In this document: piece by piece, positions 12,976-64,000 of the stretch
Layout: each line of letters starts with the position of its first letter
How positions within the stretch are numbered: the stretch's first letter is position 1
Assembly (NCBI GenBank): GCA_021791335.1
Contig: JAJYWS010000061.1
Coordinates: forward strand, 22,924 to 86,923
Reading direction: 5' to 3'
DNA length: 64,000 nt
Source: Thermoplasmata archaeon
GTDB lineage: Archaea > Thermoplasmatota > Thermoplasmata > Lutacidiplasmatales > UBA184
Made by a program: the position numbers and the translations under genes
The notes under the pieces: model-generated
Seen by the model: the letters and a program-made list of their open reading frames with translations, nothing else
The model's database searches: none
Told to the model about the DNA's origin: nothing

Positions 12976-13960
12976 GCTTCGGCGCCCAGGCGCGGGCCGG
13001 CGAACTGCGGGGCAGGCGGTCGGGGGCGAGCAGCAGTTCGAGGATCGCCTTTTCGGCGTGCAACCGGTTCTCCGCTTCGTCCCAGGCGGCCGACCGGCTC
13101 CCGTCGAGCACGTCGTCGGTGATCTCCTGGCCCCGGTGGGCGGGCAGGTCGTGGAGGACGAACGCCGACGGCTTGGCCCGGGCGAGCAGCTCGGCATTGA
13201 TCTGGAAGCCGCGGAACGCCTTCTCCCGCTTGGCGGTCTCCGCCTCGTCGCCCATCGACACCCACACGTCGGTGTAGAGGGCGTCCGCGTCGGTGGCGGC
13301 GATCGCCGGGTCGTCCGTGAAGGTCAGCTCGGCGCCGTGGAGCCGGCCGTACTCCCGGGCAACGGCGACGATTTCGGGCAGGGGCCGATAGCTCTCCGGG
13401 GTCGCGCAGACGAGATCGAGGCCGACCAGGGCGGCCCCGAGCATGAGCGAGTGCAGGACATTGTTGCCGTCCCCGATCCAGGCGAGTCGACGACCCTTGA
13501 ACGATCCCTTCCAGCGTTCGGAGAGGGTCAGGAGATCGGCGATGATCTGGGTCGGGTGCTCCCGGTCGTCGAGGGCGTTGATCACCGGGACGGTCGAACT
13601 TCCGGCGAGTTCCAGGACGCTGTCGTGACGGAAGGCCCGGTAGACGATCGCGTCGACGTACCGGGAGAGCACCCGCGCCGTGTCCCCGATCGTCTCCCCG
13701 CGGCCGAGCTGCATCTCCTTGGGAGAGTAGTAGATCGCATCGCCCCCGAGGTCGTGGATGCCGACCTCGAAGGAGGTCCGGGTCCGGGTCGACGGCTTTT
13801 CGAAGATGAGGGCGATGTTCCGGCCGCTCAGGCTCGGGCGCAGCCGGGCCCGGCGACGCTGCGCCTTGAGCCGGGCGGCGTGGTCGATGAGCCGTCCCAG
13901 ATCCGAAGCCACATCCTGGATCGAGAGAAAGTGCCGGGCCGTGACCGTCCGCGGAGCCAC
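12947..13960 (-). CDS. argF: Ornithine carbamoyltransferase
   Basis: STRTRTSFE, HPTQ, DVWVSMG and HDLP (HCLP-like) motifs. Confidence 0.85.
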   Translation of the reverse strand: MAPRTVTARHFLSIQDVASDLGRLIDHAARLKAQRRRARLRPSLSGRNIALIFEKPSTRTRTSFEVGIHDLGGDAIYYSPKEMQLGRGETIGDTARVLSRYVDAIVYRAFRHDSVLELAGSSTVPVINALDDREHPTQIIADLLTLSERWKGSFKGRRLAWIGDGNNVLHSLMLGAALVGLDLVCATPESYRPLPEIVAVAREYGRLHGAELTFTDDPAIAATDADALYTDVWVSMGDEAETAKREKAFRGFQINAELLARAKPSAFVLHDLPAHRGQEITDDVLDGSRSAAWDEAENRLHAEKAILELLLAPDRLPRSSPARAWAPKLRARRPARR

Positions 13961-16094: not shown

Positions 16095-16739
16095 GTGGGG
16101 GTCACCCCCCGGCGACCGGGATGGATCCGCCGGGTCTTCGGGGTCCCGACGAGCCGGTGGGCCGGCTGGTTCCTCGCCCGGTTCAACGGGCCGATGAACC
16201 GCCGCCTCGTCGCCCGGCTCCAGCTGGGGGGCGGCGAACGGGTCCTCGAGATCGGCCCGGGACCGGGGGTCGCCCTGGAGGCGATCGCCCGCCGGCTGCC
16301 GAACGGCCGCGTCACCGGACTGGATCCCTCGCCGGTGATGCGGTCGATGGCCGAGGCCCGGCTCCGCCGGAAATTCCCGCCCGAACGCTACCGGCTCGAA
16401 GCGGGGGAGGTGGGCGCGCTGCCCTTCCCGGACGCCTCATTCGATGCGATCTACTCGGCCAACAGCGTCCAGCTCTGGGCCCCGCTCGACGCGGCCCTTA
16501 GGGAGATCACCCGGGTCGCCGCCCCGGGCGCCCGGCTTGTGCTCGGCGCCCAGGAGGTGGCGATCCGGGGGGCCGGCCGCACCGTCCGCGAACTGTTCGA
16601 TCCTCTGGTCGGCGGGTTGTCCGGCCCGGCGTGGACGGTGGAGTCGGTGGGCCGCGGGGGGGTCGGTCGGTTCCACTACCGGTATGTGGAGGCCCGCCGC
16701 GCCGAGCGGGGGTCCGAGAGTGCCGCGGGCCGGGCTTGA
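16095..16739 (+). CDS. Class I SAM-dependent methyltransferase (Methyltransf_11-like)
   Basis: VLEIGPGPGVALEAIA SAM motif, DASFDAIYS and ARLVL. Start tentatively the GTG at 16095, just after the DUF35 stop. Confidence 0.6.
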   Translation: MGVTPRRPGWIRRVFGVPTSRWAGWFLARFNGPMNRRLVARLQLGGGERVLEIGPGPGVALEAIARRLPNGRVTGLDPSPVMRSMAEARLRRKFPPERYRLEAGEVGALPFPDASFDAIYSANSVQLWAPLDAALREITRVAAPGARLVLGAQEVAIRGAGRTVRELFDPLVGGLSGPAWTVESVGRGGVGRFHYRYVEARRAERGSESAAGRA

Positions 16740-16962
16740 ACCGGCGGCTTCAAGATCTTCAGTCTTGCACTCTCCCAAACTGAGTTACCGCGGCACAGGA
16801 TCGTCCTCCCCGACCGACGGAAGTATAAAGACGCTTTAGCCGGAGGGGCTCCCTGAACCGCCCCATGATCCGCCCACGAACGCCGGCGCGCGCGTTCGGT
16901 AGGCCCCCGGCCGCTCCGGCCTCCCCTGACGTTATCTACGGGTCCACGCCTCGGAAGGGGTC

Positions 16963-19464
16963 GTGCCGGGAACCCTGATCGTCACGGAGAAGTTCAACAC
17001 CGCCCTTAGGATCGCGGTCGTCCTCTCGGAGGGCCGGATGAAGCGGACCCGCATGGGCGGGACCCCGGTCTTCGAATTCGAGTGGCACGGCACCCCCGTC
17101 GCGGTGGTCGGACTGCGCGGCCACATCGTCGAGCTCGACTACCCCAAGGAGCTCGCCGAGTGGAGCTTCGAGACCCTGCCGACCCTCATCGAGACCCCCC
17201 CGTTCAAGCGGATCACCGAGGGGGGGATCGTCGACACCCTCCAGGGGATGGTCCGGCGCTACGACCGGGTCATCCTGGCGACCGACTTTGACCGGGAAGG
17301 GGAACTCATCGGGCTCGAGTGCCTCGAGCTGATCCAGAAGGTCCATCCGACGATCGAGGTCCAGCGGGCCCGCTACAGCGCGCTCACCCGGGAGGAGATC
17401 GAGCGGAGCTTCGCGAACCTCCAGACGCTCGACCGGGCGCTCGCCGAAGCCGCCGAGTCCCGCCAGGAGATCGATCTCGTCTGGGGGGCGGTCCTCACCC
17501 GATTCCTCTCGCTCACCGCGGGCCAGCGGGGCCGCGGCTTCCTCTCGGTCGGCCGGGTCCAGACCCCGACGCTCGCGTTGCTCGTCGAGCGGGACCGGGC
17601 GATCAAGCAGTTCGTCCCGACCCCCTACTGGCAGATCACCGCCGAGGCGACGCACGACGGCACGGCCTTCACGCTCCAGCACGAGCACGGCATCTGGGAG
17701 GACCGGGGCGAGGCCCAGACGGTCTATGCCCGGGTCGAGGGGGCGCCGCGGGCCACCGTCCGGGAGTTCCGGGAGGAGGAGACCCGCCGGCGCCCGCCGG
17801 TCCCGTTCTCGACGACCCTCTTCGTCGCCGAGGCGACCCGGCTGGGCCTCGGGGCCGCGGTGGTGATGCGGATCGCCGAGGACCTCTACACGCAGGGGCT
17901 CATCAGCTACCCTCGAACCGACAACACGGTCTATCCGCGGGGGCTCGGGCTCCGGTCGATGGTCGAGAAGTTTAGGGACGGGCCGTTTGGCGAGGCGGCC
18001 GAGCTGGTCCTGAAGCAGGAGTCGTTGCGGCCGACCCGGGGTCGGACCGAGACGACCGACCACCCCCCGATCTACCCGACCCAGGCCGTCGACCCGAAGA
18101 AGCTCAAGCCGGACCACGCGCGGCTCTATGAGCTCGTGGTCCGCCGGTTCCTGGCGACCCTCGGCCCCGACGCGATCGGCCAGAGCCGGACCGCGAAGCT
18201 GGACGTCCAGGGGGAGCCGTTTCTCGGGAAGGGCCAGCGCCTGATCGACCCCGGCTGGTATGCCCTCTACCCGTACTCCCGGGCCGAGGAGAGCCCGATG
18301 CCGGTGCTGACGGTCGGGAGCTCGGTCCAACTCGCCCACGTCGATCTGGTCGAGGAGCAGACCAAGCCCCCCCGACGCTACACCCAGGGGACGCTCATCC
18401 AGGAGATGGAGCGGCTCGGGCTCGGGACCAAGAGCACCCGGCACGACGTGCTCCAGAAGTTGTTCGACCGGCACTATGTGAGCGCCCGGGCCCTCGAGCC
18501 GACCGCGACCGGGATCGCGGTGACCGAGGCGCTGCAGGCCCACGCGCCGCTGGTGACCCGCCCCGAGATGACCCACCGGCTCGAGGACGACATGGAGCTG
18601 GTCGCCGAGTCGAAGAAGCCCAAGTCGGAGGTGCTGCGCGAATCGCGCGAGATGCTCGGGGAGGCCTATCAGCTGCTCGCCCAGAACCGGGACCGGGTCC
18701 GGGAGACGCTCACGGGGGCGCTCGACCAGCAGCATTTTGCCGGCCCGTGCGCGCTCTGCGGCGGGGCGCTCCGGATCGCCCGGAGCCCCCGGGGCGGCCG
18801 GTGGGTCCAGTGCGTCAACAACCCCGCGACCTGCACCGCGACCTACCCGCTTCCGCTCGCGGGCTTCATCGAACCGGCGCCCGAGTTCCTCTGCCGTCAG
18901 TGCCGGGTCCCGCGGGTCAAGATCACCTTCCGCGGGGTCCGGCCGGACCTCTACTGCATCAACCCCGAGTGCCCCGAGCACCAGAAGGCGTTCCGGCTCG
19001 GCCGCTGCCCGCAGTGCGGGCGGCCGCTCGAGATCCGCTACTCGTTCCAAGGGAAGCGGTTCGGCGGATGCTCGGGGTATCCGGAGTGCCGGACCACCTA
19101 CCCGCTGCCGCAGCGGGGCAAGCTCGAGATCGCGCCGGAGCCGTGCCCCGAATGCCGGGCGCCGGTCGTGACCGCCATCGAAGCCGGCCGGCCTCCGTGG
19201 ACGCTGTGCATCAACCCCGCCTGCCCGAGCCGGATCCGCGAGGGCGAGGCGAAGGCGGAGCGGGCCAAGGCCCGGGCCACCGCCCAGCGCCAGAAGGCCC
19301 GGACACGGTCGTCGAAGGGTTCCGCGACCGCCCGGCCGGCCCGGCGGAAGGCTCCCGCGAAGCCCGCCGGCGCGCCCGGGGTACCGGCGGCCCCGCGCCG
19401 TCGCCGCCGGGCCGAAACCGCCCCCGTGAGGGCCGCTGTTTCAGGATCTCCGCCCGTCGGTTAA
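16963..19464 (+). CDS. topA: DNA topoisomerase I (type IA) with C-terminal zinc ribbons and basic tail
   Basis: TOPRIM ATDFDREGE motif, active-site Tyr region, multiple C4 zinc ribbons (CALCGG..C..C) and a K/R/A-rich tail. GTG start. Confidence 0.9.
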   Translation: MPGTLIVTEKFNTALRIAVVLSEGRMKRTRMGGTPVFEFEWHGTPVAVVGLRGHIVELDYPKELAEWSFETLPTLIETPPFKRITEGGIVDTLQGMVRRYDRVILATDFDREGELIGLECLELIQKVHPTIEVQRARYSALTREEIERSFANLQTLDRALAEAAESRQEIDLVWGAVLTRFLSLTAGQRGRGFLSVGRVQTPTLALLVERDRAIKQFVPTPYWQITAEATHDGTAFTLQHEHGIWEDRGEAQTVYARVEGAPRATVREFREEETRRRPPVPFSTTLFVAEATRLGLGAAVVMRIAEDLYTQGLISYPRTDNTVYPRGLGLRSMVEKFRDGPFGEAAELVLKQESLRPTRGRTETTDHPPIYPTQAVDPKKLKPDHARLYELVVRRFLATLGPDAIGQSRTAKLDVQGEPFLGKGQRLIDPGWYALYPYSRAEESPMPVLTVGSSVQLAHVDLVEEQTKPPRRYTQGTLIQEMERLGLGTKSTRHDVLQKLFDRHYVSARALEPTATGIAVTEALQAHAPLVTRPEMTHRLEDDMELVAESKKPKSEVLRESREMLGEAYQLLAQNRDRVRETLTGALDQQHFAGPCALCGGALRIARSPRGGRWVQCVNNPATCTATYPLPLAGFIEPAPEFLCRQCRVPRVKITFRGVRPDLYCINPECPEHQKAFRLGRCPQCGRPLEIRYSFQGKRFGGCSGYPECRTTYPLPQRGKLEIAPEPCPECRAPVVTAIEAGRPPWTLCINPACPSRIREGEAKAERAKARATAQRQKARTRSSKGSATARPARRKAPAKPAGAPGVPAAPRRRRRAETAPVRAAVSGSPPVG

Positions 19465-29187: not shown

Positions 29188-29721
29188 GTGCGGGGCCTTC
29201 TGGTCGGACGATTCCAGCCGTTTCACCTCGGTCACCTCGCCACCGTCCGGTGGATCCGGGAGCATCACGACGAACCGCTGCTCCTGGGGATCGGATCGGC
29301 CCAGGAGTCGTACACCTGGACGAACCCCTTCACGGCCGGGGAGCGGTTCGAGATGATCGACCGGACCCTGCGCGCGGAGGGGATCTCCCAGGTCCAGTGC
29401 GTGCCGTTGCCCGACATCCATCGGCACGCCCAGTGGGTCGCCTACGTCGAGTCGATGCTCCCGCCGTTCTCCCGGGTCTACACCAACAACCCGCTCACCC
29501 GGCTCCTCTTCGAGCGGGCGGGGCACCCGGTCGTCTCGGTCCCCTGGGCCGACCGGGAGCGGTGTGAGGGCGCGAAGCTCCGACGCCAGCTCGCGGGGAG
29601 CGGATCGACGGAATCGTTGCCCCTGCCCGGGGCCGTCGCGGCCTATCTCACGGAGATCGCCGGACCCGAGCGGCTCCGCCGGTTGCGTCCCGAGGAGGCG
29701 GACGGGAAGCCCCCATCATGA
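29188..29721 (+). CDS. nadM: Nicotinamide-nucleotide adenylyltransferase (archaeal NMNAT)
   Basis: GRFQPFHLGH (H/T-x-G-H) nucleotidyltransferase motif; ~177 aa; GTG start. Confidence 0.85.
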   Translation: MRGLLVGRFQPFHLGHLATVRWIREHHDEPLLLGIGSAQESYTWTNPFTAGERFEMIDRTLRAEGISQVQCVPLPDIHRHAQWVAYVESMLPPFSRVYTNNPLTRLLFERAGHPVVSVPWADRERCEGAKLRRQLAGSGSTESLPLPGAVAAYLTEIAGPERLRRLRPEEADGKPPS

Positions 29722-30947
29722 GCGATCCCGTGATCGAGCGGCCGCGGCCGCCCCGGTTCGATCCGTTGCCCGACTGGGTCGGGCCGGCGACGCGGCTCAT
29801 CCACGGGGCCCGTCGGCCCGACCGGAACGCGGGCGCGGTGGTGCCCCCGCTCTACACCTCCACCACCTACCGGTTTCCCCCCGAGTTCTCGCCGGCGGAG
29901 CCCCGCGATCCCCCCTACCTGTACGCCCGGGAGGGGCATCCTACGGCCGAACCCCCGGCCGAGATCATCCGCCAGCTCGAAGGGGCGGAAGCCGCCCGGC
30001 TGTTCGGCTCCGGGATGGGAGCCCTGGCGGCGACGTTCCAGAGCCTCGTGCGCCCGGGCGACGAGGTCGTCGCGTTCGCCGACATCTACGGCGGGACCCG
30101 CACCCTCCTCGCCCAGCTCGAGGGCGCCGTGGGGATCCGGGTCCGCTGGGTCCAGCCGGGGGAGACCCGCCGCCCCCGCGACGTGGTGGGCCCGGCGAGC
30201 CGGCTGGTTTTCCTCGAGACCCCGTCGAACCCCCTTCTGACGGTCCACGACATCGGGGCCTGGGCCTCGGAGGCCGACGCGGTGGGGGCGCTGCTGATCG
30301 TCGACAACACCTTTGCGACCCCCGTGAACCAACGGCCGCTCAAGTTCGGCGCCGACCTGGTGGTCCACAGCGCGACCAAGTATCTGGGGGGCCACTCCGA
30401 TCTGATGGCCGGGGCGGTCGTCGGGCCGCGACAGCTCGTCGATCGGATCGACGCGCACCACACCCTGGGCTCGGTCCCCGATCCGTGGTCGGCCTACCTG
30501 CTGAATCGCAGCCTGAAGACCCTCAGCCTCCGGGTGGCCCGGCAGAACGAGAATGCGCGGGCGGTGGCCCTCGCGCTCCGGGACCACCCGGCGGTCGAAC
30601 GGGTCTACTACCCGGGCTGGAACTCGGTCGAGGAGGAAGCGGTGGCCGACCGCCAGATGGCCGGGCGGGGAGGGATGGTCGCCTTCGACCTCCGGGGAGG
30701 ATCGATGGCCGTCCGAGAGTTCCTCCACCGGCTCCGGTTCGTCGAGGTGGCGTCCAGTCTCGGCGGCGTCGAGAGCCTGGTCAGCGTCCCCCGGGAAACC
30801 TCCCACCGCGGGCTGGACCCGGGCGAACGGCTCCGGCTCGGCATCGGCGACGGCCTCGTGCGGCTGAGCCTCGGGATCGAGGAGACGGCCGATCTGCTCC
30901 GCGACCTCCGCGAGGCCTTGGAGCCGCGAACGGACCACCGGGTCTGA
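29718..30947 (+). CDS. PLP-dependent Cys/Met-metabolism enzyme (cystathionine gamma-synthase/beta-lyase/methionine gamma-lyase family)
   Basis: SATKYLGGHSD PLP-lysine motif; ~400 aa; the ATG overlaps the nadM stop (ATGA). Confidence 0.85.
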   Translation: MSDPVIERPRPPRFDPLPDWVGPATRLIHGARRPDRNAGAVVPPLYTSTTYRFPPEFSPAEPRDPPYLYAREGHPTAEPPAEIIRQLEGAEAARLFGSGMGALAATFQSLVRPGDEVVAFADIYGGTRTLLAQLEGAVGIRVRWVQPGETRRPRDVVGPASRLVFLETPSNPLLTVHDIGAWASEADAVGALLIVDNTFATPVNQRPLKFGADLVVHSATKYLGGHSDLMAGAVVGPRQLVDRIDAHHTLGSVPDPWSAYLLNRSLKTLSLRVARQNENARAVALALRDHPAVERVYYPGWNSVEEEAVADRQMAGRGGMVAFDLRGGSMAVREFLHRLRFVEVASSLGGVESLVSVPRETSHRGLDPGERLRLGIGDGLVRLSLGIEETADLLRDLREALEPRTDHRV

Positions 30948-33130: not shown

Positions 33131-34498
33131 TCACCACTGGTCGGGCCCGTCCGTGACGTGGATCACCTGCTCGAAGCCGAGGGCTTCGAGCCGCCCGGCG
33201 GCGACGGCGGACCGCTCCCCCCGGGCACAGTGGACGTAGATCGGGACCTCTCGGGGAAGGTCGCGGAGGCTCCGGGCCCCCAGCTCCCCGAGGGGAACCG
33301 AACGGGCTCCGGGAAGGTGGAGTCGTGCAAACTCGCTCGGCTGTCGGACGTCCAGCACGGTCATCGGCTGCCCGAGGCTGAGCCGCCGCCGCAAATCGGG
33401 CATCCGGGCCCGTCGGGTCGTTCGGAGGGGGGCCCCGGACGCCGCGTACGCGGGCCAGCCGCCGGCCAGCTGGCCGAGGATGCGGTCGAACCCGATCCGC
33501 TGCAGGGCCCGGCTCCCCTCGACCTGGTCGGCTTCGGAGCCCCCCACCAAGATGAACCGGTCGGAGGCCCGGCAGGTCCATCCCACCCAGGCCGTGTAGG
33601 TCCCCTCCCGGCCGATGTAGAGGCTGCCGGGGATGTGGCCGGCGTCGAACTGCCGGTAGGTCCGAAGATCGAGGACCCGGACGCTCGGGCGGGTCGCGGC
33701 GCGCGCGACCTCCTGGGGCGAGAGCCGTGCCGGGGGTTCGGGCGGATCACCGAGCGGCGGTGGCCCGCGGCGGTTGCGCTCCCTCATCCCGAGATAGTAG
33801 CTCGGGAACGGGTCCGAGGTCAGGTACCGTTCGACAAATGCGACGAATGACGGGGCGCGGATGAGACGGTTCTGCCGTCGCTCACGGCCGACGGTCGAGG
33901 CGGCTTGGGTGGACGCCCCGACCCCGCAGAAGCTCCCCCCGGCATGGGTCGGGTGGACCGCCACGCTCGCCGGGAGCTCCCGGACGTACCGCCGGAGGGT
34001 GGTCCATTCGTCCCGGGCCAAGGGAAGGGTATGCCGGGGACCGAGAAGGTCCGGCCGCGCGGCCGAGCCCACCATGAGGCTGCCGCCCGAGAAGAGTCGG
34101 CGGGGCCGCCCGTGCTCGTCCAGGCAAAGGTAGCTCGTGTGCTCGGGGGTGTGGCCCGGGCTGGCCCGTCCGACCAGCCGGCCCGGGCCGAGGTCGAGCC
34201 GATCGCCATCCGAGAGGGCGCGATGGGGAAACGCGAGCCGGGAGCCCTTCGGGGCCCCGAGTTCGGCCCCCGACCGGCGGGCGAGTTCCCGCCCGCCGGA
34301 GAGGAAGTCGTTGTGGAGGTGGGTCTCGAGAACCCACCGGATCCGGGCGCCGCGCCCCCGGGCCTCGGCGACGTACCGGCCGATGTCCCGGACCGGATCG
34401 ATCACGCCGGCCTCCCGGCCGTAGCCCACCAGGTACGAAGCGTTCCCGAGATCGGGGTGGCGGAAGGTCTTGAGCCACAGCCCGTTCGAACCCCGCAT
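33131..34498 (-). CDS. MBL-fold hydrolase fused to tandem rhodanese domains (persulfide dioxygenase-sulfurtransferase type)
   Basis: HLHNDF (HxHxDH) metallo-beta-lactamase motif followed by two rhodanese-like domains with active-site Cys loops. Confidence 0.8.
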   Translation of the reverse strand: MRGSNGLWLKTFRHPDLGNASYLVGYGREAGVIDPVRDIGRYVAEARGRGARIRWVLETHLHNDFLSGGRELARRSGAELGAPKGSRLAFPHRALSDGDRLDLGPGRLVGRASPGHTPEHTSYLCLDEHGRPRRLFSGGSLMVGSAARPDLLGPRHTLPLARDEWTTLRRYVRELPASVAVHPTHAGGSFCGVGASTQAASTVGRERRQNRLIRAPSFVAFVERYLTSDPFPSYYLGMRERNRRGPPPLGDPPEPPARLSPQEVARAATRPSVRVLDLRTYRQFDAGHIPGSLYIGREGTYTAWVGWTCRASDRFILVGGSEADQVEGSRALQRIGFDRILGQLAGGWPAYAASGAPLRTTRRARMPDLRRRLSLGQPMTVLDVRQPSEFARLHLPGARSVPLGELGARSLRDLPREVPIYVHCARGERSAVAAGRLEALGFEQVIHVTDGPDQW

Positions 34499-34610
34499 TC
34501 CGTGAACCCACCGGGGATGCGAGGCGACCTACATAGGGTCCGCGTGGGGGCCCCGGTTGGCCCCGACGCCCGGGAAGGCTCAAAAGGGCCGGGCTTCGTC
34601 GGCGGGGGCG

Positions 34611-37615: not shown

Positions 37616-38095
37616 TCGGGCCGGCTCGGCCTTCCGTGACCCCCGATGGTGCGTTGGTGGGCGCCGGTAGCCCCTTCGGCTCGATGGGCCGGGAGTTATG
37701 GCGCAGGGCGCATGGACGTACCGGCGAACGGAGCCCACAACCGCCCGACTTACGTGGGCGTTCTCGGCGGCGGTCCAACCCCGGCTCACGATGAGGCCGG
37801 GTCGGCTCGTGGTGCCGCGCCGACGCTGGCCGAAGCGTTGGGGCCGCCGGAGGCGTGGATGGCGGCGTCGCGCCGCCTCGCGCTCACCGTCTATGGGACC
37901 CGGAAGATGGGGCGAATCTGCGGGCGCAAGCCAGCGCAGCTGGCCCGACGAGCGACGAAACGTAGGACTTCCCTTCCCGAGATGATCTGCTCGACCCGCC
38001 CTCCGGGCCACGGCGATGCCCGGCCGGCGCCCACGACCCCGATGCCGAACCTCCTCACCCCACGGGAGTCGTCGGGGAACTCCCCGGGGGGAGAG

Positions 38096-38296
38096 CTAGT
38101 GCCAGCGGATGGTGTAGACGAAGTTTCGGCCCTCGGTGGCAGCCCGCACCCGGGCCGTATCGATCTCAATCGCGAAGGTCGCGGCCGCCTCGAGGCTGAG
38201 TCGGGGGTGCAGTCCCACGCCCTGGGGGGTCGCTTTACCGATCGAGACGAAACCGCGGGGGGGAGTGGGGGCTCCCGTCAGGGGGGTTACGGTCAT
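38096..38296 (-). CDS. Hypothetical small protein
   Basis: 66-aa ORF with coding-like bias, divergent from the M2 peptidase; no domain recognised. Confidence 0.3.
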   Translation of the reverse strand: MTVTPLTGAPTPPRGFVSIGKATPQGVGLHPRLSLEAAATFAIEIDTARVRAATEGRNFVYTIRWH

Positions 38297-38353
38297 GGGG
38301 CGGACGGAACTGGGCCTCCCGAAAGGGTAGCGGGGGCGGTCCTACTTAAACAA

Positions 38354-40168
38354 ATGTCCCCTCTGGAACTCCGAAGTTGGGCCGGCGGCCCGACGGCCAG
38401 CGGTAATAGGGAGAGTCGGCCTGCACGGACCATGCCAGCCACCGGTGGAAACGGGAGTCGTGGGAGTGAGGCGGCGGAGGGATTCCTGCGGGAGGCCGAG
38501 GCCCGGCTCCTCGATCTGTCGGTCGAGAGCCAGCGCGCCGAGTGGGTACACGCCACCTACCTGTCCCTGGACACCGCCGATCTGGCGGCTCGAGCCTTTG
38601 CCCGTCGGGTACGGGCGAGTGTCGAGATGGCCCGGAACTGGACTCGATTTGACTCCGCGGACCTGCCGGCCGACCTGCGCCGCAAGGGCCTCCTCCTGAG
38701 GCTCTCGCAGTCGCTGGTGGCGCCTTCCGGGCCGGGGGAGTCCGAAGAACTGGCGCATCGCGTGGCCGCGATGGAGGGGCGGTACGCCACCTTCCGGGTC
38801 GTCCTTCCCGGTCGGAAGGAGCCGACCGACCTCGAAGGGCTCTCCCGGATCCTGGCGGAGAGCGACGACCCCGCGCTGATGGAGGCGGCGTGGAACGGCT
38901 GGCACGAGGTCGGACGGCCGATGCGGGCCGACTTCCTCCGGTATGTGGACTTGGCCAACCGCGGGGCCCGGGAGCTCGGGTTCGCCGATACCGGGGAGAT
39001 GTGGCGGTCCCGCTACGATATGCCGCCCGACCAACTCACGGCCGAGGTCGAGCGGCTTTGGGAGCAGGTGGCCCCGCTCTACCGGGATCTCCACCGCTGG
39101 GTCCGGCAGCGGCTCATGGAGCGCTACCCCGAGCTCGTTTCGGACGGGGGCCCGATACCCGCCCACCTGCTCGGCAACATGTGGGCGCAGTCCTGGGAGT
39201 CGCTCAGCACCGGGATCACCCCGACCGGGATTTCGGGGGGGCCGGCGCTGACCGATGTCCTGCGGGCCCGCATCTCCGATCCCCGGGAGATGGTCCGCTA
39301 TGCGGAGCGGTTCTTCACGTCGATCGGCTTCGAACCGTTGCCCGCCAGCTTCTGGGAGCGCTCGATGTTTTCCCGTCCGAAAGACCGGGAGGTGGTCTGC
39401 CATGCCAGCGCCTGGGACCTGGACTTCGACCAGGATGTCCGCATCAAGATGTGCATCGAAACCACCGGGGAGGAGTTCCAGGTCATCCACCACGAACTCG
39501 GACACACCTACTATCAACTCGCCTGCCGACGGCAGCCGTTTCTCTTCCGGGACAGCGCCCACGACGGCTTCCATGAGGCGCTCGGGGATCTGATCGGGCT
39601 CAGCGTGACCCCGGCCTACCTCGCCCGGATCGGACTCGCCGGAGCCGATCCCGCCCCGGCCTCCCCCGTCGGGGGGCTGCTCCGGATCGCCCTCGACAAG
39701 GTACCGTTCCTTCCGTTCAGCGTGGCCGTCGATCGGTGGCGATGGGAGGTCTTCTCGGGCCGAGTCGGCCCCGACCAGCTCAACCGGAGATGGTGGGAGC
39801 TCCGCGAGGAGCTGCAGGGCATCGCCCCGCCCAGTCGCCGGGATCCCGACACCTTCGATGCGGGGGCGAAGTACCACATTCCGGCGAGCGTGCCGTACCT
39901 GCGCTACTTCCTCGCCTACATCCTCCAGTTCCAGATGCACCGCGCACTCGCCCGGGCCTCCGGGTGGGACGGGGCGCTCCACGAGTTCACGATCTACGGC
40001 AACCGCGAGGCCGGCGCCCGCCTCCGGACGATGATGGAGATGGGGCAGAGCCGTCCGTGGCCGGAGGCGCTGGAATCGGTCACCGGCGAACGCCGGATGG
40101 ATGCGAGCGGACTCCTCGAGTACTTCCGTCCGCTCCGCGACTGGCTGAACCGGGAGCAGCGCCGTTAG
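38354..40168 (+). CDS. Peptidase family M2 (angiotensin-converting-enzyme-like peptidyl-dipeptidase)
   Basis: VIHHELGHTYY (HEXXH) plus GFHEALGDLIGLSV closely match the ACE zinc-binding motifs HHEMGH...HEAIGD. The ~600-aa domain length is right. Start codon uncertain (ATG 38354 or 38432). Confidence 0.8.
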   Translation: MSPLELRSWAGGPTASGNRESRPARTMPATGGNGSRGSEAAEGFLREAEARLLDLSVESQRAEWVHATYLSLDTADLAARAFARRVRASVEMARNWTRFDSADLPADLRRKGLLLRLSQSLVAPSGPGESEELAHRVAAMEGRYATFRVVLPGRKEPTDLEGLSRILAESDDPALMEAAWNGWHEVGRPMRADFLRYVDLANRGARELGFADTGEMWRSRYDMPPDQLTAEVERLWEQVAPLYRDLHRWVRQRLMERYPELVSDGGPIPAHLLGNMWAQSWESLSTGITPTGISGGPALTDVLRARISDPREMVRYAERFFTSIGFEPLPASFWERSMFSRPKDREVVCHASAWDLDFDQDVRIKMCIETTGEEFQVIHHELGHTYYQLACRRQPFLFRDSAHDGFHEALGDLIGLSVTPAYLARIGLAGADPAPASPVGGLLRIALDKVPFLPFSVAVDRWRWEVFSGRVGPDQLNRRWWELREELQGIAPPSRRDPDTFDAGAKYHIPASVPYLRYFLAYILQFQMHRALARASGWDGALHEFTIYGNREAGARLRTMMEMGQSRPWPEALESVTGERRMDASGLLEYFRPLRDWLNREQRR

Positions 40169-59674: not shown

Positions 59675-60250
59675 TCAGAGGGCTTTGAAGAGGTCGGACT
59701 GGGTCACGATGCCGCGGAGCGTCCCGCGCTCGGTGACCAGGACGGCCGGGACGTGCCGGAGGAGCGCCGCAGCGACCCGACTCGGCGTATCGGCGTCGAT
59801 CTGGGGGAACGGACCCTCGAGCACCTCCCCGACGGTGAGCCGGGACAGCCGGGACACCGACCGGGGATCCGCCAGGCAGCGGACGATCGTGCGATCGGTG
59901 AGCGAGCCGACGACCAGGCCCCCGGAGAGCACCGGGACCTGGCTGATGGAGTGTCGGCGCATCCGGCGGGCGGCCTCCACCAGCATGGTGGAGGGCTCCA
60001 CCTGGACGAGGGTCGGGGTCGCGAGGTGGCGGACCGGCACATCCCGCGGTTCCGCCTCGAGGTGTCGGTCGAGGGCTTCGAAGAGGGCGAGGGCCTTGCG
60101 GTAGGAGGGGTCGATCCGGCCCCGCTCGATCTTGGCGACCAGGGATTGGCTGACCCCCGCCCGGCGGGCGAGTTCGGTCTGGCTGAGGCCGGCCCTCAGC
60201 CGGCGCCGGCGGAGGTCCGTGAGGGAGGGGAGGTCGTTGGGCGGAGCCAT
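59675..60250 (-). CDS. Transcriptional regulator: HTH_XRE fused to a CBS-domain pair
   Basis: LRRRRLRAGLSQTELARRAGVSQSLVAKIERG HTH followed by two CBS motifs. Start set at ATG 60250, leaving the AT-rich element at 60263..60297 as shared divergent promoter space. Confidence 0.7.
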   Translation of the reverse strand: MAPPNDLPSLTDLRRRRLRAGLSQTELARRAGVSQSLVAKIERGRIDPSYRKALALFEALDRHLEAEPRDVPVRHLATPTLVQVEPSTMLVEAARRMRRHSISQVPVLSGGLVVGSLTDRTIVRCLADPRSVSRLSRLTVGEVLEGPFPQIDADTPSRVAAALLRHVPAVLVTERGTLRGIVTQSDLFKAL

Positions 60251-60345
60251 CGCTACCGGAGCGTTGAGTCCTATAGGAATATTTCGGTCAGTCTCCATTA
60301 TCTCCGCCGCCCGGTCGCTGGCTCGGTTCCGGAGGGAGAAGCCCG

Positions 60346-61719
60346 ATGACCATTGCACCGACCGAGCGCGCGACCGAACCAAACCGCGCCGTGGGGCCGA
60401 GCCGCGCGTCGACCGCCGATCGCGTGGAGTGCGCCGCCTGCGAGCCGAGTGCGAGCTGGGCCGTCGGACAGGTCTGTGAGGAGTGCGGCGGCCGCTCGGA
60501 GTGGCACCGGGGAGCCGCCTGCCCCCGCTGCCTCGGCCCGCTCGTGGTCGACTACCGACGCCCCGATGGGCCGGAGGCGCCGTTGCCCTCCACCTGGGCG
60601 GGCCGACCGGCGACGCTCTTCCGGTTCGCCGAGCTGTTGCCCCCCCTTCCTCGGCCGTACCGGGACCGGTTGGAGTTCCCCTTCTCCCCCCTCCGGCGCG
60701 CCCTGCGTCTCGGGGAGCAGCTGGGGCTGGATGAGCTCTGGATCAAGGACGACACGGTCCTCGCGTCCGGCTCGTTCAAGGACCGTCCTGCCGCCGTGGC
60801 GGTGGCGTGGGCCGCGGCCCACGGGCGGCCCTGGGTGGGCTGCGCGTCGACCGGCAACCTCGCCGCGGCCACCGCCCGGGCGGCCGCCCGTCTCGGGCTT
60901 CCGTGCATCGTCGTGGTCCCCTCCGGTCTTCCGCGCCCCAAGCTGCGCATCGTCCGGCATCTCGGGGCCCGCATCCTGGAGGTGAACGGAAGCTACGACG
61001 ATGCGAACCGTATCGCCCAGCTCACGGAGGAGACCCGAGGGGGCGGATTCGTCAACATCGGGTTGAGGCCGATCTATGCGGAAGGATCCAAGACGCTGCT
61101 GTTCGAGACCTGGGCCGACCTCTCCGGCCGGCTGCCCGACGCCGTGATCGTACCCCTCGGTTCCGGGGCGCTCCTCAGTGCCACCCAACGCGCCCAGGAG
61201 CAGCTCCGGAGCTGGGCCGGCGCACCCGACCCCCCGGCACGGCTGATCGGCACCCAGCCCGAAGGGTGTTCGCCGATCGTGGACGCCTTTGAGCGCGGTG
61301 ACGAGGAGATCCGACCGGTCGAGCGGTCGACGAGCATCGCCGAGAGCCTGGCGATCGGCCACCCGGCGTCCGGCCGGTCGGCCCTCCGGGCCATCCGCAC
61401 GACCGGGGGGCTGGCCGACCGGCCGCGGCGCGCGGAGGTGGTCCGCGGCGTCCGGGAACTCGCCCGTTGGGAGGGCGTCTACAGCGAACCCGCCGGGGGC
61501 AGCGTCGTGGCGACCCTCCGGCGACTTCGGGAACAGGGCGCCCTCCGGCGTTCGGACCGGGTCGTGCTGTACCTTACGGGCGCCGGGTGGAAAACCCCGA
61601 CGGCGGTCCGGCCGCTCGGAACCGAGAGTCGACCGGTGCGGGTCGATCTCCGGCGGCCGGAACTCGACTCATGGCCCTTGCCAACCGACGACTCCCCGAT
61701 GGGAGGTTCCGCATGGTGA
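60346..61719 (+). CDS. thrC: Threonine-synthase-family PLP enzyme with N-terminal Cys-rich zinc ribbon (ThrC or MetM-like)
   Basis: SFKDR PLP-lysine motif and a fold-type II layout. N-terminal C..C(x16)C..C(x11)C..C ribbon. GGAGGG RBS 9 nt upstream of the ATG. Confidence 0.85.
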   Translation: MTIAPTERATEPNRAVGPSRASTADRVECAACEPSASWAVGQVCEECGGRSEWHRGAACPRCLGPLVVDYRRPDGPEAPLPSTWAGRPATLFRFAELLPPLPRPYRDRLEFPFSPLRRALRLGEQLGLDELWIKDDTVLASGSFKDRPAAVAVAWAAAHGRPWVGCASTGNLAAATARAAARLGLPCIVVVPSGLPRPKLRIVRHLGARILEVNGSYDDANRIAQLTEETRGGGFVNIGLRPIYAEGSKTLLFETWADLSGRLPDAVIVPLGSGALLSATQRAQEQLRSWAGAPDPPARLIGTQPEGCSPIVDAFERGDEEIRPVERSTSIAESLAIGHPASGRSALRAIRTTGGLADRPRRAEVVRGVRELARWEGVYSEPAGGSVVATLRRLREQGALRRSDRVVLYLTGAGWKTPTAVRPLGTESRPVRVDLRRPELDSWPLPTDDSPMGGSAW

Positions 61720-61988
61720 CGATCCATCTGGGATCGGTCCTCCGGATCTGCGCCCCGCAGCTCGATCTGCGTCAGTTCGCGGAGTTCTCGGGCACCCTCC
61801 CGGAACTGCTGGAACGGTTGGCCTCGGCGGGAGGACCCGCCCTACGGGACCGGTTGCTCGAGGGGGGAAACCCCCGACGGTATCTGAACATCTTCGTGGA
61901 CGGGCGGGACGTCCGCTTCCTCCCGAGCCCGGTGCGGATCGGGCCGGGGACGGTCGTCGATCTGCTCCCGGCGGTGGCCGGCGGATGA
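61713..61988 (+). CDS. MoaD/ThiS-family ubiquitin-fold sulfur-carrier protein ending in Gly-Gly
   Basis: 91 aa, MVTIHLGSVLR...VDLLPAVAGG-stop: a beta-grasp protein with a C-terminal GG, overlapping the thrC-like stop. Confidence 0.65.
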   Translation: MVTIHLGSVLRICAPQLDLRQFAEFSGTLPELLERLASAGGPALRDRLLEGGNPRRYLNIFVDGRDVRFLPSPVRIGPGTVVDLLPAVAGG

Positions 61989-63133
61989 CCGGGCGAACTG
62001 CGCCCGCCGATTCGGTCCGATCCCCGGCCGAGGCGGGGGCGGCGGAACTTCCCCCTCACCGGCTGGTGCTGGTGGGGTTCGGGCGGGTCGCCCGGGCCCT
62101 GGCCCGCCGTCTGGTCGCCTCCGGCCGCCCCGACGGCAAGTCGGCTCGCTTCCGGGTGGTCGCGGTGTTCGACTCCCGGGGGTGCGTGGCCGACCCGCGG
62201 GGCGTGGCCCTCGACGAGCTCATCCGGCGGAAGGAACGGACCGGGCGGCTCGAGGGCCCGGGGGCGACGGTCTGGGATCTGGACACGGTCCTGCGCGATC
62301 TGGCCCCCCAGATCGTGGTCGAAACCACATGGTCGGAGCCCCGGCCCGGCGAGCCCGGCCGTCGCCATATCCTCTCCGCCCTGCTGGCCGGCGCGGATGT
62401 GGTCACCTCGAACAAGGGGCCCCTCGCCCGACACAGTGCCGAGGTCCTCGAGACGTCCCGGATGATGGGGCGGGAGCTTAGGTTCGGCACCACCGTCGGC
62501 GGCATCGTGCCGATCCTGGAGTCGATCCGCGGCCCCCTTCGGGCCTGCGGGGTGACCCGGATCGAGGGGGTCGTCAATGGGACCACCCAATTCGTGCTGG
62601 GGCGGCTCGCGGACGGGGTCTCTTGGGCCGAGGCGGTGGCCTCGGCCGTGCAGGAAGGGATCACCGAACCGGATCCCCGACATGACCTGGACGGGCACGA
62701 TGCGGCGATGAAGGCCGCCATCCTCCACAATGTCCTCTTTGCGCCCCCGCTCGACCCCCGCCGGGTCGCCCGCCGACCGGTCGATGCCTCGATCCAGGCC
62801 CGCGCCCACCGTCTCGGCGAACAGGGACGGCGCTTGGTGGTGCTGACCGAGGTCACGCCGGACGGTGCCCGTCTGCGGTGGGTGGAGGTCGACCGGGGGG
62901 ATCCCTGGGACCTCCCGTCGGCCACCAACCGGTTCGTGATCGAGACCGAGCGGGCCGGCACGCTGACCCTCACCGGGGCCGGCGCCGGACCGGAAGCCAC
63001 GGCCGCCGGCCTTCTGGCCGAGCTCGAGGAGGTCGCCGAAGCCCGGGAGCGGTATCGTCGGTCCACCACCCTAAGGACCGGAGCCACGACCCTTCCCCGG
63101 TCGGGCCGGGCCCTGGCGGAGGCCTTCCCCTGA
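61985..63133 (+). CDS. hom: Homoserine dehydrogenase
   Basis: NAD-binding LVLVGFGRVARAL and homoserine dehydrogenase catalytic-domain motifs (TSNKGPLA...). The ATG overlaps the upstream stop (ATGA). Confidence 0.85.
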   Translation: MTGRTAPADSVRSPAEAGAAELPPHRLVLVGFGRVARALARRLVASGRPDGKSARFRVVAVFDSRGCVADPRGVALDELIRRKERTGRLEGPGATVWDLDTVLRDLAPQIVVETTWSEPRPGEPGRRHILSALLAGADVVTSNKGPLARHSAEVLETSRMMGRELRFGTTVGGIVPILESIRGPLRACGVTRIEGVVNGTTQFVLGRLADGVSWAEAVASAVQEGITEPDPRHDLDGHDAAMKAAILHNVLFAPPLDPRRVARRPVDASIQARAHRLGEQGRRLVVLTEVTPDGARLRWVEVDRGDPWDLPSATNRFVIETERAGTLTLTGAGAGPEATAAGLLAELEEVAEARERYRRSTTLRTGATTLPRSGRALAEAFP

Positions 63134-63237
63134 CGCCGACCGCTCCGTCGCCCGAAACCCCCGTTCTCCCGCCTGTCCCGGACCTCTCCGCACTCCCGTG
63201 CGGAGAACCCTCGCGGGGATCGGCCGCGGCAGTCGAG

Positions 63238-64000
63238 GTACCGTACAGCATCGCCAATTTCGGTCCGGGGTTTGACCGGTTGGGGCTCTGTCTCAACGGG
63301 CCGCCCGAGTGGGCATCGTTCGCCCCGGGCGGACGGGGGCTCCGGATCACCGTGGTCGGGGATCCGCTTGTTCCCCGGGCTCCCCGACGCAACGTCGCCG
63401 CTGTGGCGTTCCGTTGGACGACGCGTCAGTTGGGAGCTCCTGAGGCGAACGGCGAGCTTACGCTGGTGAAACGGACCGCCGGCGGCAGCGGCCTCGGATC
63501 GAGCGGCGCCTCCGCCCTGGCGGGTGCCCTGCTCGGTGCCCGGCAGGCGGGCACGGACCTCGCGGATCGTCGGGCCCTGGAGACGGTGCTGCGGGGGGCC
63601 GCCGAAGGCGAACGGGCGGCCTCCGGGGCCGCCCACTACGACAACGTGGCCGCCAGCCTCTTCGGGGGACTCGCGCTGATCGAGTCCCTCGATCCGCTGC
63701 GGGTCCACCGGATCGATCCGGGATCCGGACTGCGGATCGCGGTGGCCACCCCGGCCGACCGGGTCGTCACCCGGACGGCCCGGCGGGCGATCCCGAGCCG
63801 GATCCCGCGGGAAGATGCGGTGACGAATCTCGGATGCCTGGGGGCGCTCCTCCTCGGCGCTGTGCAGCGCGATCCCCGGTCGGTCGGTCGGGCCCTCACC
63901 GATCGGATCGCCGAACCGTACCGGGCGTCCCTCGTCCCCGGCTACTTCGACGCTGTGGCGGCCGCCCGTGCGGAAGGAGCGTGGGGGGCCGCCCTGGCCG
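63238..64000 (+). CDS. thrB: Homoserine kinase (GHMP kinase), 3' truncated by window end; start codon not identified
   Basis: VPYSIANFGPGFDRLG N-terminus and the GHMP motif GGSGLGSSGA. No canonical in-frame ATG/GTG/TTG between the hom stop and the conserved N-terminus. Confidence 0.75.

Follow-up and report, generated by a model that had tools for sequence, protein, structure and literature searches.

What is the function of a gene named for threonine synthase that is followed, in one operon, by the gene for a small Gly-Gly-tailed protein and then by the genes for homoserine dehydrogenase and homoserine kinase? The question arises at the end of a 64,000 nt stretch (here called the window) of contig JAJYWS010000061.1 from a Thermoplasmata archaeon (assembly GCA_021791335.1), where the first two products correspond to proteins publicly named 'threonine synthase [Thermoplasmata archaeon]' and 'MoaD/ThiS family protein [Thermoplasmata archaeon]'. 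A first-pass annotation had suggested that a paralogue of threonine synthase (ThrC) makes homocysteine from O-phosphohomoserine with a thiocarboxylated carrier as sulfur donor, in the manner of MetM/MetO of Streptomyces. This suggestion is supported by the tree, signature residues, gene pairing, S-adenosylmethionine (SAM) riboswitches and metE context described below, and the operon most likely encodes the part of methionine biosynthesis that leads from aspartate semialdehyde to homocysteine, by a route of the MetM/MetO type. The window is most reasonably viewed as an unannotated archaeal member of this known system, not as a new kind, and the public annotation as threonine synthase is probably wrong.

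The window has a G+C content of 70% and is archaeal, encoding aEF-1alpha, the proteasome alpha subunit and LonB, while TFB and aIF-2/eIF5B are encoded on the extension downstream of it. Near-identical contigs were found in public metagenomes and in the metagenome-assembled genome GCA_027376775.1, with 44 differences in 12,288 bp. The genes of interest form a compact five-gene unit made up of a divergent regulator, the enzyme, the carrier, hom and thrB. This layout recurs in relatives with proteins that are just 46–62% identical to those of the window, and in our comparison the arrangement appears to be more than chance.

The enzyme gene (60346–61719, forward strand) encodes a protein of 457 aa, predicted to be a MetM-like, pyridoxal phosphate (PLP)-dependent homocysteine synthase of the ThrC fold that uses O-phosphohomoserine. 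The next gene (61713–61988, forward strand) encodes the 91 aa predicted sulfur carrier, and its ATG overlaps the stop codon of the enzyme gene by 7 nt (ATGGTGA). The same 7 nt overlap is found in the related loci L005, L096 and L097, and it is consistent with the translational coupling that had been claimed for the pair. Nearly all long-form MetM-like proteins of Thermoplasmata terminate in Trp because the ATGGTGA overlap with the carrier start (61711–61719 in the window) is conserved; the terminal Trp is a case of overlap-constrained sequence conservation.

Downstream, hom (61985–63133, forward strand) encodes a 382 aa homoserine dehydrogenase (Pfam Homoserine_dh, 1.7e-35, and NAD_binding_3; NCBIfam PRK06270, 5e-67), and thrB (63130–64000, forward strand), which is cut by the window end and has an uncertain start, encodes a homoserine kinase (NCBIfam PRK01212, 6e-57; Pfam GHMP_kinases_N). 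ATGA overlaps had been reported for both genes. The carrier/hom junction is indeed a true ATGA overlap, whereas the hom/thrB junction reads CTGA and offers no canonical start. Between the hom stop codon and the conserved VPYSIANFGPGFD motif of thrB there is no in-frame ATG, GTG or TTG, and the GTG chosen by gene callers as the thrB start in the near-identical contig L001 (99.6% identical), which contains thrB in full, corresponds to GTA in the window. Because no in-frame ATG, GTG or TTG precedes the catalytic core, translation of thrB probably begins with CTG at 63130, which overlaps the stop codon of hom (CTGA). The missing canonical start (63130–63240) implies an upstream CTG start of this sort or reinitiation. 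In L005, thrB is read from a TTG located 11 nt ahead of the stop codon of hom, and the encoded N-terminal extension is likewise rich in proline.

As stated in the first-pass annotation, the protein encoded from 60346 is a PLP enzyme of the ThrC fold (Pfam PALP, 2e-65), with the SFKDR motif at residues 143–147 and K145 as the PLP lysine. Its closest matches in the PDB are threonine synthases (E 1e-37 to 5e-42), and the best solved relatives, the ThrC proteins of Bacillus subtilis, Thermus thermophilus, Aquifex aeolicus and Mycobacterium tuberculosis, share approximately 33–35% identity with it. The N-terminal ribbon of six cysteines that had been described is present as three CxxC pairs (C29/32, C44/47 and C59/62). 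Conservation across the family extends only to C44, C47, C59 and C62, which form a 4-Cys zinc ribbon; C29 and C32 are seen in the closest relatives alone. Two other identities were considered and rejected. CysM proteins are about 300–320 aa long, compared with the 457 aa of this ThrC-type protein, and no cysteine-synthase model was among its best 25 NCBIfam matches. The cysteate synthase model TIGR03844 gave 57 bits against a cutoff of 325.

To place the enzyme, a neighbour-joining (NJ) distance tree of 110 sequences was built with 100 bootstraps. The sample consisted of the window protein, 19 database homologues, the matches from 80 genome loci identified with a family profile, and the Nonomuraea protein. 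The references were two structurally characterised ThrCs, the ThrC of a Brevibacillus hom-thrC-thrB unit, a haloarchaeal ThrC and the second ThrC of the Thermodesulfovibrio locus L088, and CysM served as the outgroup. The window enzyme fell inside a clade of 102 zinc-ribbon proteins that was monophyletic in 70 of the 100 bootstraps and, within it, in a subclade of long-form Thermoplasmata proteins (94/100). The ThrCs of B. subtilis (6cgq), T. thermophilus (1uim) and Brevibacillus and the second ThrC of L088 all lie outside this clade. Thus, the enzyme does not group with canonical threonine synthases, in agreement with the paralogue originally proposed.

A third kind of zinc-ribbon ThrC-like protein, approximately 34% identical to the window enzyme, is encoded in a Halorussus plasmid (L093, 2228–4209) and represented by Halomicrococcus match H2. 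These haloarchaeal megaplasmid genes have the motifs SHGNM and GQK and are paired with a gene of the aldolase/citrate-lyase family, without ThiS. In the NJ tree the haloarchaeal megaplasmid gene joins neither the MetM-like clade nor the bacterial ThrCs.

The clade is also set apart by its active-site residues. Six positions, L172, R241, Y244, S248, C308 and S334 in the numbering of the window protein, are invariant or nearly so among the 102 members, and all six residues are present in the window enzyme. In the ThrC references these positions are occupied by T, N, R, Q, A and A in four of five cases (the bacterial ones) and by A, N, Q, K, S and A in the haloarchaeal one. The corresponding motifs are STGN-L in the clade and STGN-T in ThrC, RP(Y/F)Y.EGSK and NP.R.EGQK, GSG(A/S)(L/M) and GNAGN, Q..GC.P (with the invariant Cys308) and G(A/S)A, and SLAIG and AIRIG. 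Residues T88, S155, R160 and N188 of T. thermophilus ThrC, with numbering matched to the sequence, align with L172, a glycine, Y244 and S273 of the window enzyme. We take these four residues to be the substrate-phosphate pocket; Omi et al. in 2003 are said to have found that T88, R160 and N188 hold the substrate phosphate, and according to Murakawa et al. in 2011 the phosphate reportedly steers water addition in ThrC. These pocket residues are replaced, and on the combined evidence of tree and alignment the enzyme does not appear to be a canonical threonine synthase.

The small protein ends in PAVAGG followed directly by TGA, so that the Gly-Gly is truly terminal, as had been noted. It matches Pfam ThiS (PF02597) at 24.1 bits, with a cutoff of 22.5, and the best PDB sequence matches are 1v8c (1.3e-9) and M. 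tuberculosis CysO (3dwg_C, 1.2e-4), both aligned through the terminal Gly-Gly. The CysO partner of BexX (4n6e_B) also aligns through it. An AlphaFold2 model (mean pLDDT 93, pTM 0.84) has the predicted beta-grasp fold, and the top Foldseek match was CysO in the CysM-CysO complex (3dwg_C), followed by 1v8c, 4n6e_B and SAMP1, all with a probability of 1.00; the top matches comprise CysO, MoaD and SAMP proteins. Residues P86, A87, V88, A89, G90 and G91 are invariant in 37 homologues. Two actinobacterial relatives of the carrier were checked for context, and both are in JAMM(Mec)-CysO-CysM loci. Assignment of the small protein to SAMP1 or archaeal MoaD was rejected, with NCBIfam scores of 22.7 against a cutoff of 60 and 20.3 against 49.5, respectively. 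Because it ends exactly in Gly-Gly, trimming by a JAMM/Mec protease before activation should be unnecessary. The carriers of some relatives end in GGC (e.g. that of the actinobacterial locus L084), GGCAGP, GGAGF or GGGHD and would need trimming. A second, divergent Gly-Gly protein of the ThiS family (89 aa) is encoded beyond the regulator gene in L096 (6951–7220, reverse strand) and is absent from the window.

When the genome loci were examined, a ThiS-like open reading frame (ORF) was found directly downstream of the enzyme gene in 67 of 80, comprising 40/42 archaeal and 27/38 bacterial loci. In the two archaeal exceptions, L011 and L034, little or no sequence is left downstream of the match. 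Hence, this pairing is already widespread in the archaeal genomes compared, and the window is not a unique archaeal instance. Of the 42 archaeal loci, 37 have a gene for a ThiF/MoeB-like activating enzyme (E1) next to the pair or fused to the carrier gene; in 31 loci carrier and E1 form one ORF, joined as AVAGG-S. Such fusions are seen in the Thaumarchaeota (L014–L056; e.g. L019, 11119–12534), Hadesarchaea (L037) and Actinomycetota (L089), and they raise the question of how the internal Gly-Gly is released. In a published survey, the Thaumarchaeal MoaD-MoeB fusion was interpreted as a part of molybdenum-cofactor biosynthesis (PMC11237513); its constant place beside a MetM-like gene suggests a role in methionine biosynthesis instead. 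Among bacteria, the Nitrospira loci have the order CysM-E1-enzyme-ThiS-E1-JAMM.

Several contexts connect the pair to methionine. The enzyme gene is directly preceded by a SAM riboswitch (RF00162) in 14 of 23 tested bacterial loci (Actinomycetota, Acidobacteria and Kiritimatiellae). They include Nonomuraea (L091), in which the riboswitch is followed by the enzyme gene and then by the gene for a 91 aa Gly-Gly carrier, and Nocardioides/Marmoricola (L081–L085); the window enzyme shares its clade with the products of these riboswitch-metM-like-metO-like loci. Two Thermoplasmata-like loci (L096 and L097) have the same layout as the window, with the regulator gene opposite enzyme-ThiS-hom-thrB. In L005 this operon continues with genes for aspartate kinase and a rhodanese/metallo-beta-lactamase protein, then metE(N) and metE(C). 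L095 has the order enzyme-ThiS-thrB; thus, thrB follows the pair in the window, L005, L095, L096 and L097. In L098 the order is ThiF-enzyme-ThiS-NifS-like-sulfite reductase-PAPS reductase. L088 (139–3056) has a tandem of MetM-like, ThiS and canonical thrC genes, followed by an aspartate kinase gene, and offers a natural pair in which the two enzyme types can be compared. These contexts point to O-phosphohomoserine as the substrate and methionine as the end product, and on this comparative evidence the enzyme/ThiS pairing is ancient, with ties to both sulfur and methionine.

The pathway we propose begins with the ordinary activities of the two downstream families, with Hom converting aspartate semialdehyde to homoserine and ThrB converting homoserine to O-phosphohomoserine. 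The Gly-Gly end of the carrier, with no JAMM/Mec trimming beforehand, would be adenylated by an E1 of the ThiF/MoeB/UbaA type encoded elsewhere and then converted to a C-terminal thiocarboxylate. The ThrC-like enzyme would eliminate phosphate from O-phosphohomoserine on PLP, and attack of the carrier thiocarboxylate at C-gamma would yield homocysteine, possibly via a carrier-homocysteine adduct. Threonine synthase adds water at C-beta, whereas the reaction here would be a gamma-replacement by thiocarboxylate. A methionine synthase encoded elsewhere would finish the pathway, and expression would probably be set by the divergent regulator acting at TCCTATAGGA, in place of the bacterial SAM riboswitch. 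The gene identities and their conserved linkage come from the present analysis; the chemistry is predicted from the Streptomyces findings, for which the summary in GapMind 2026 was used.

MetM/MetO of Streptomyces albulus (Hasebe et al. 2024, Appl Environ Microbiol 90:e01247-24) is known to us through the papers that cite it. In one of these, S. albulus metM is described as having a SAM riboswitch and an adjacent metO, and a Microcystis MetM homologue as lacking the riboswitch (PMC12172450). From these accounts, the S. albulus system and the window have in common a gene for a ThrC-homologous PLP enzyme directly upstream of a gene for a ThiS/MoaD-type carrier, O-phosphohomoserine as the implied substrate and the usual annotation of the enzyme as threonine synthase. 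In addition, the window enzyme clusters with the products of actinobacterial metM-like genes under SAM riboswitch control. The window differs, as far as those accounts go, in being archaeal and in having a divergent regulator with a helix-turn-helix (HTH) domain and a CBS pair, together with an operator-like element, instead of a SAM riboswitch. Its operon includes hom and thrB, its enzyme has an extra N-terminal CxxC pair and an E1 gene (MoeZ in Streptomyces) is not nearby. The window carrier is ready-made, ending exactly in Gly-Gly, whereas some actinobacterial homologues, such as that of L084, end in GGC.

The CysM/CysO/Mec/MoeZ system of M. tuberculosis (PDB 3dwg) likewise combines a thiocarboxylated beta-grasp carrier, a PLP enzyme of fold type II and an O-phospho amino acid, and CysO is the best structural match of the window carrier. 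However, CysM is of the cysteine-synthase type, is approximately 320 aa long and uses O-phosphoserine, whereas the window enzyme is of the ThrC type, has 457 aa and a zinc ribbon, and is without an adjacent JAMM gene. Canonical ThrCs (6cgq, 1uim; identity ~33–35%) share the fold, the SFKDR lysine motif and presumably the substrate O-phosphohomoserine with the window enzyme. They lack the zinc ribbon, a carrier partner and the clade-invariant Cys308, and their STGNT, NPxRxEGQK and GNAGN are STGNL, RPxYxEGSK and GSGAL in the window enzyme. A protein thiocarboxylate is also the reported source of homocysteine sulfur in Wolinella succinogenes, where HcyS, HcyF, HcyD and MetY reportedly take part (work by Krishnamoorthy and Begley). 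MetY is said to be an O-acetylhomoserine sulfhydrylase of the Cys_Met_Meta_PP fold (type I) acting on O-acetylhomoserine. That system shares the sulfur source with the window and, unlike it, involves neither a ThrC-fold enzyme nor O-phosphohomoserine.

Homocysteine formation in archaea other than methanogens is poorly documented, and pairs of the MetM/MetO type are routinely labelled as threonine synthase and molybdopterin-synthase small subunit. Recognition of MetM/MetO corrects the annotation and would close a gap in the methionine pathway of this Thermoplasmata lineage; by the comparative data, it would also do so for most of the ammonia-oxidising archaea sampled. No new chemistry is involved: the route has been on record since its description from Streptomyces in 2024, and GapMind already includes it.

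A number of observations weigh against assigning homocysteine synthesis to this operon. The enzyme passes the NCBIfam thrC model TIGR00260, albeit barely (169.7 bits, cutoff 167.1), and therefore sequence similarity alone cannot decide its identity; it reached 215 against a cutoff of 303 for PRK08197, and the remaining ThrC models were far under their cutoffs. Support for the clade is moderate (70%) and comes from a distance tree. The genome loci were fished with the peptide patterns GCASTGNLA and RP[YFI]Y[ATV]EGSK, which partly fixed four of the signature positions in all 80; neither C308 and S334 nor the 19 database proteins depend on these patterns. Orthology to S. albulus MetM is assessed by proxy, through the actinobacterial homologues linked to SAM riboswitches. 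Our tblastn search of a plasmid collection found Nonomuraea alone (a chromosome deposited under plasmids) and no MetM-type match from Streptomyces, and a homology search with Nonomuraea MetO gave at least 120 matches, all the named ones from Streptosporangiales. Within the 74 kb examined (the 64 kb window and 10 kb beyond), regular expressions and relaxed tblastn detected no E1, JAMM protease or second ThrC, and no methionine synthase is encoded there either. That the E1 would be encoded away from the locus had been anticipated in the first-pass annotation. A weak PALP-like match at 13037–13582 was tried as a second ThrC and rejected as an aspartate/ornithine carbamoyltransferase. A Cys/Met-metabolism PLP enzyme (29568–30944, forward strand; PF01053, 387 bits) resembles the models for cystathionine gamma-synthase, cystathionine gamma-lyase and methionine gamma-lyase, passes no NCBIfam cutoff, and may represent a second homocysteine route or a reverse-transsulfuration enzyme. 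Finally, the literature searched contained no biochemical or genetic data for any archaeal member and no published experimental work on, or explicit description of, an archaeal MetM.

Could the enzyme instead serve both pathways, as the sole threonine synthase of the organism that makes homocysteine when thiocarboxylated carrier is available, in a combined threonine and methionine operon? The resemblance of the operon to a classical hom-thrC-thrB unit, the marginal TIGR00260 match and the failure to find a second ThrC in the 74 kb would fit, and a Microcystis homologue that is 51.6% identical to MetM has been reported to act in vitro as a threonine synthase and a threonine deaminase (PMC12172450). 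However, 74 kb is a small part of a genome, and Thermodesulfovibrio L088 encodes a canonical ThrC right next to a member of the clade, which argues for separate functions. Throughout the clade, the residues that reportedly hold the substrate phosphate in ThrC are replaced. We therefore consider a bifunctional enzyme unlikely.

Two further readings are less probable still. That the carrier-dependent enzyme makes a different thiol amino acid, such as cysteine from O-phosphoserine by the logic of CysM/CysO, would agree with CysO proteins being the closest characterised relatives of the carrier and with the position of the L098 pair among sulfate-assimilation genes. Against this, the enzyme is of the ThrC type and not the cysteine-synthase type, linkage to thrB, hom and metE is consistent, and a separate CysM adjoins the enzyme in the Nitrospira loci; true CysM genes are distinct there and in L007–L010. 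We regard this reading as very unlikely. Least probable of all, in our judgement, is that an ordinary threonine synthase merely neighbours a MoaD/ThiS gene that serves molybdopterin synthesis, tRNA thiolation or SAMP-type modification. The public names 'threonine synthase' and 'molybdopterin converting factor small subunit', the weak NCBIfam matches of the carrier to SAMP1 and archaeal MoaD, and the assignment of the Thaumarchaeal MoaD-MoeB fusion to molybdenum-cofactor biosynthesis (PMC11237513) could be cited in its favour. Yet the SAMP1 and MoaD scores are far under their cutoffs, no moaE or other molybdenum-cofactor gene was found near the pair, and the enzyme is phylogenetically apart from characterised ThrCs. 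The two genes are adjacent across archaeal and bacterial phyla, frequently with overlapping reading frames, and the bacterial members carry SAM riboswitches. Synthesis of homocysteine by a MetM/MetO-type pair accordingly remains our preferred explanation.

How might such an operon be regulated? An Rfam scan of the window returned only tRNAs and no SAM riboswitch, as expected for an archaeon. The divergent gene (59675–60250, reverse strand) was correctly recognised at the outset as that of an HTH-CBS regulator. Its 191 aa product has an N-terminal HTH_3 domain (Pfam, 2.6e-14) and a C-terminal pair of CBS domains (6e-18), and gene callers give a 191 aa product in the near-identical contigs L001–L004. 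Orthologues occupy the same divergent position in L005 (62% identity), L096 and L097. In a four-way alignment of the 95 bp between the regulator and enzyme genes with the corresponding regions of these three loci, the AT-rich GTCCTATAGGAATATTTCG (60268–60286), which contains the palindrome TCCTATAGGA (60269–60278), is near-invariant, and the flanking intergenic DNA is not conserved. A second element, ATTAT/CTTAT (60297–60301, forward strand), has invariant TTAT columns, lies approximately 45 nt upstream of the enzyme ATG and may be part of the promoter of the enzyme gene. Both elements have been kept in four lineages with proteins that are only ~50–60% identical. As GTCCTATAGGAATATTTCG is 18–35 nt upstream of the regulator ATG, the expected place of the TATA box for a leaderless archaeal mRNA, it could plausibly be both operator and promoter for the two divergent genes.

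A PDB sequence search with the regulator returned only generic CBS proteins (MJ0100, E = 0.0065), which give no pointer to the ligand; SAM-sensing, as raised in the first-pass annotation, would be a speculative though reasonable analogy with the bacterial riboswitch. A broader proposal, which we put forward tentatively and think more doubtful than not, is that the HTH-CBS protein senses SAM, S-adenosylhomocysteine or methionine, binds TCCTATAGGA overlapping the divergent promoters and so replaces the SAM riboswitch and, relatedly, that the MetM/MetO route, still unrecognised there, is the main source of homocysteine in Thaumarchaeota, Bathyarchaeota and many Thermoplasmata, groups in which fusion of the carrier to its own E1 is frequent. 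If true, archaeal methionine biosynthesis would have in the HTH-CBS protein its first defined transcriptional regulator that acts via a CBS ligand switch.

Elsewhere in the window, a metallo-beta-lactamase protein with two matched rhodanese stretches (33134–34528, reverse strand) is 35–38% identical to a protein of the L005 methionine operon, where the counterpart gene sits between those for aspartate kinase and metE. This protein may assist in sulfur transfer to the carrier. A very strong match to Peptidase_M2, the angiotensin-converting-enzyme family (37640–40165, forward strand; Pfam, 639 bits), was also found in this archaeal genome. Outside the window, the L095 contig encodes subunits of the AMO and AmoC families (copper membrane monooxygenase; 16216–17242) approximately 7 kb from its cluster of ThiS, thrB and a 413 aa, short-form MetM-like protein, close homologues of which are publicly named Thermoplasmata archaeon.

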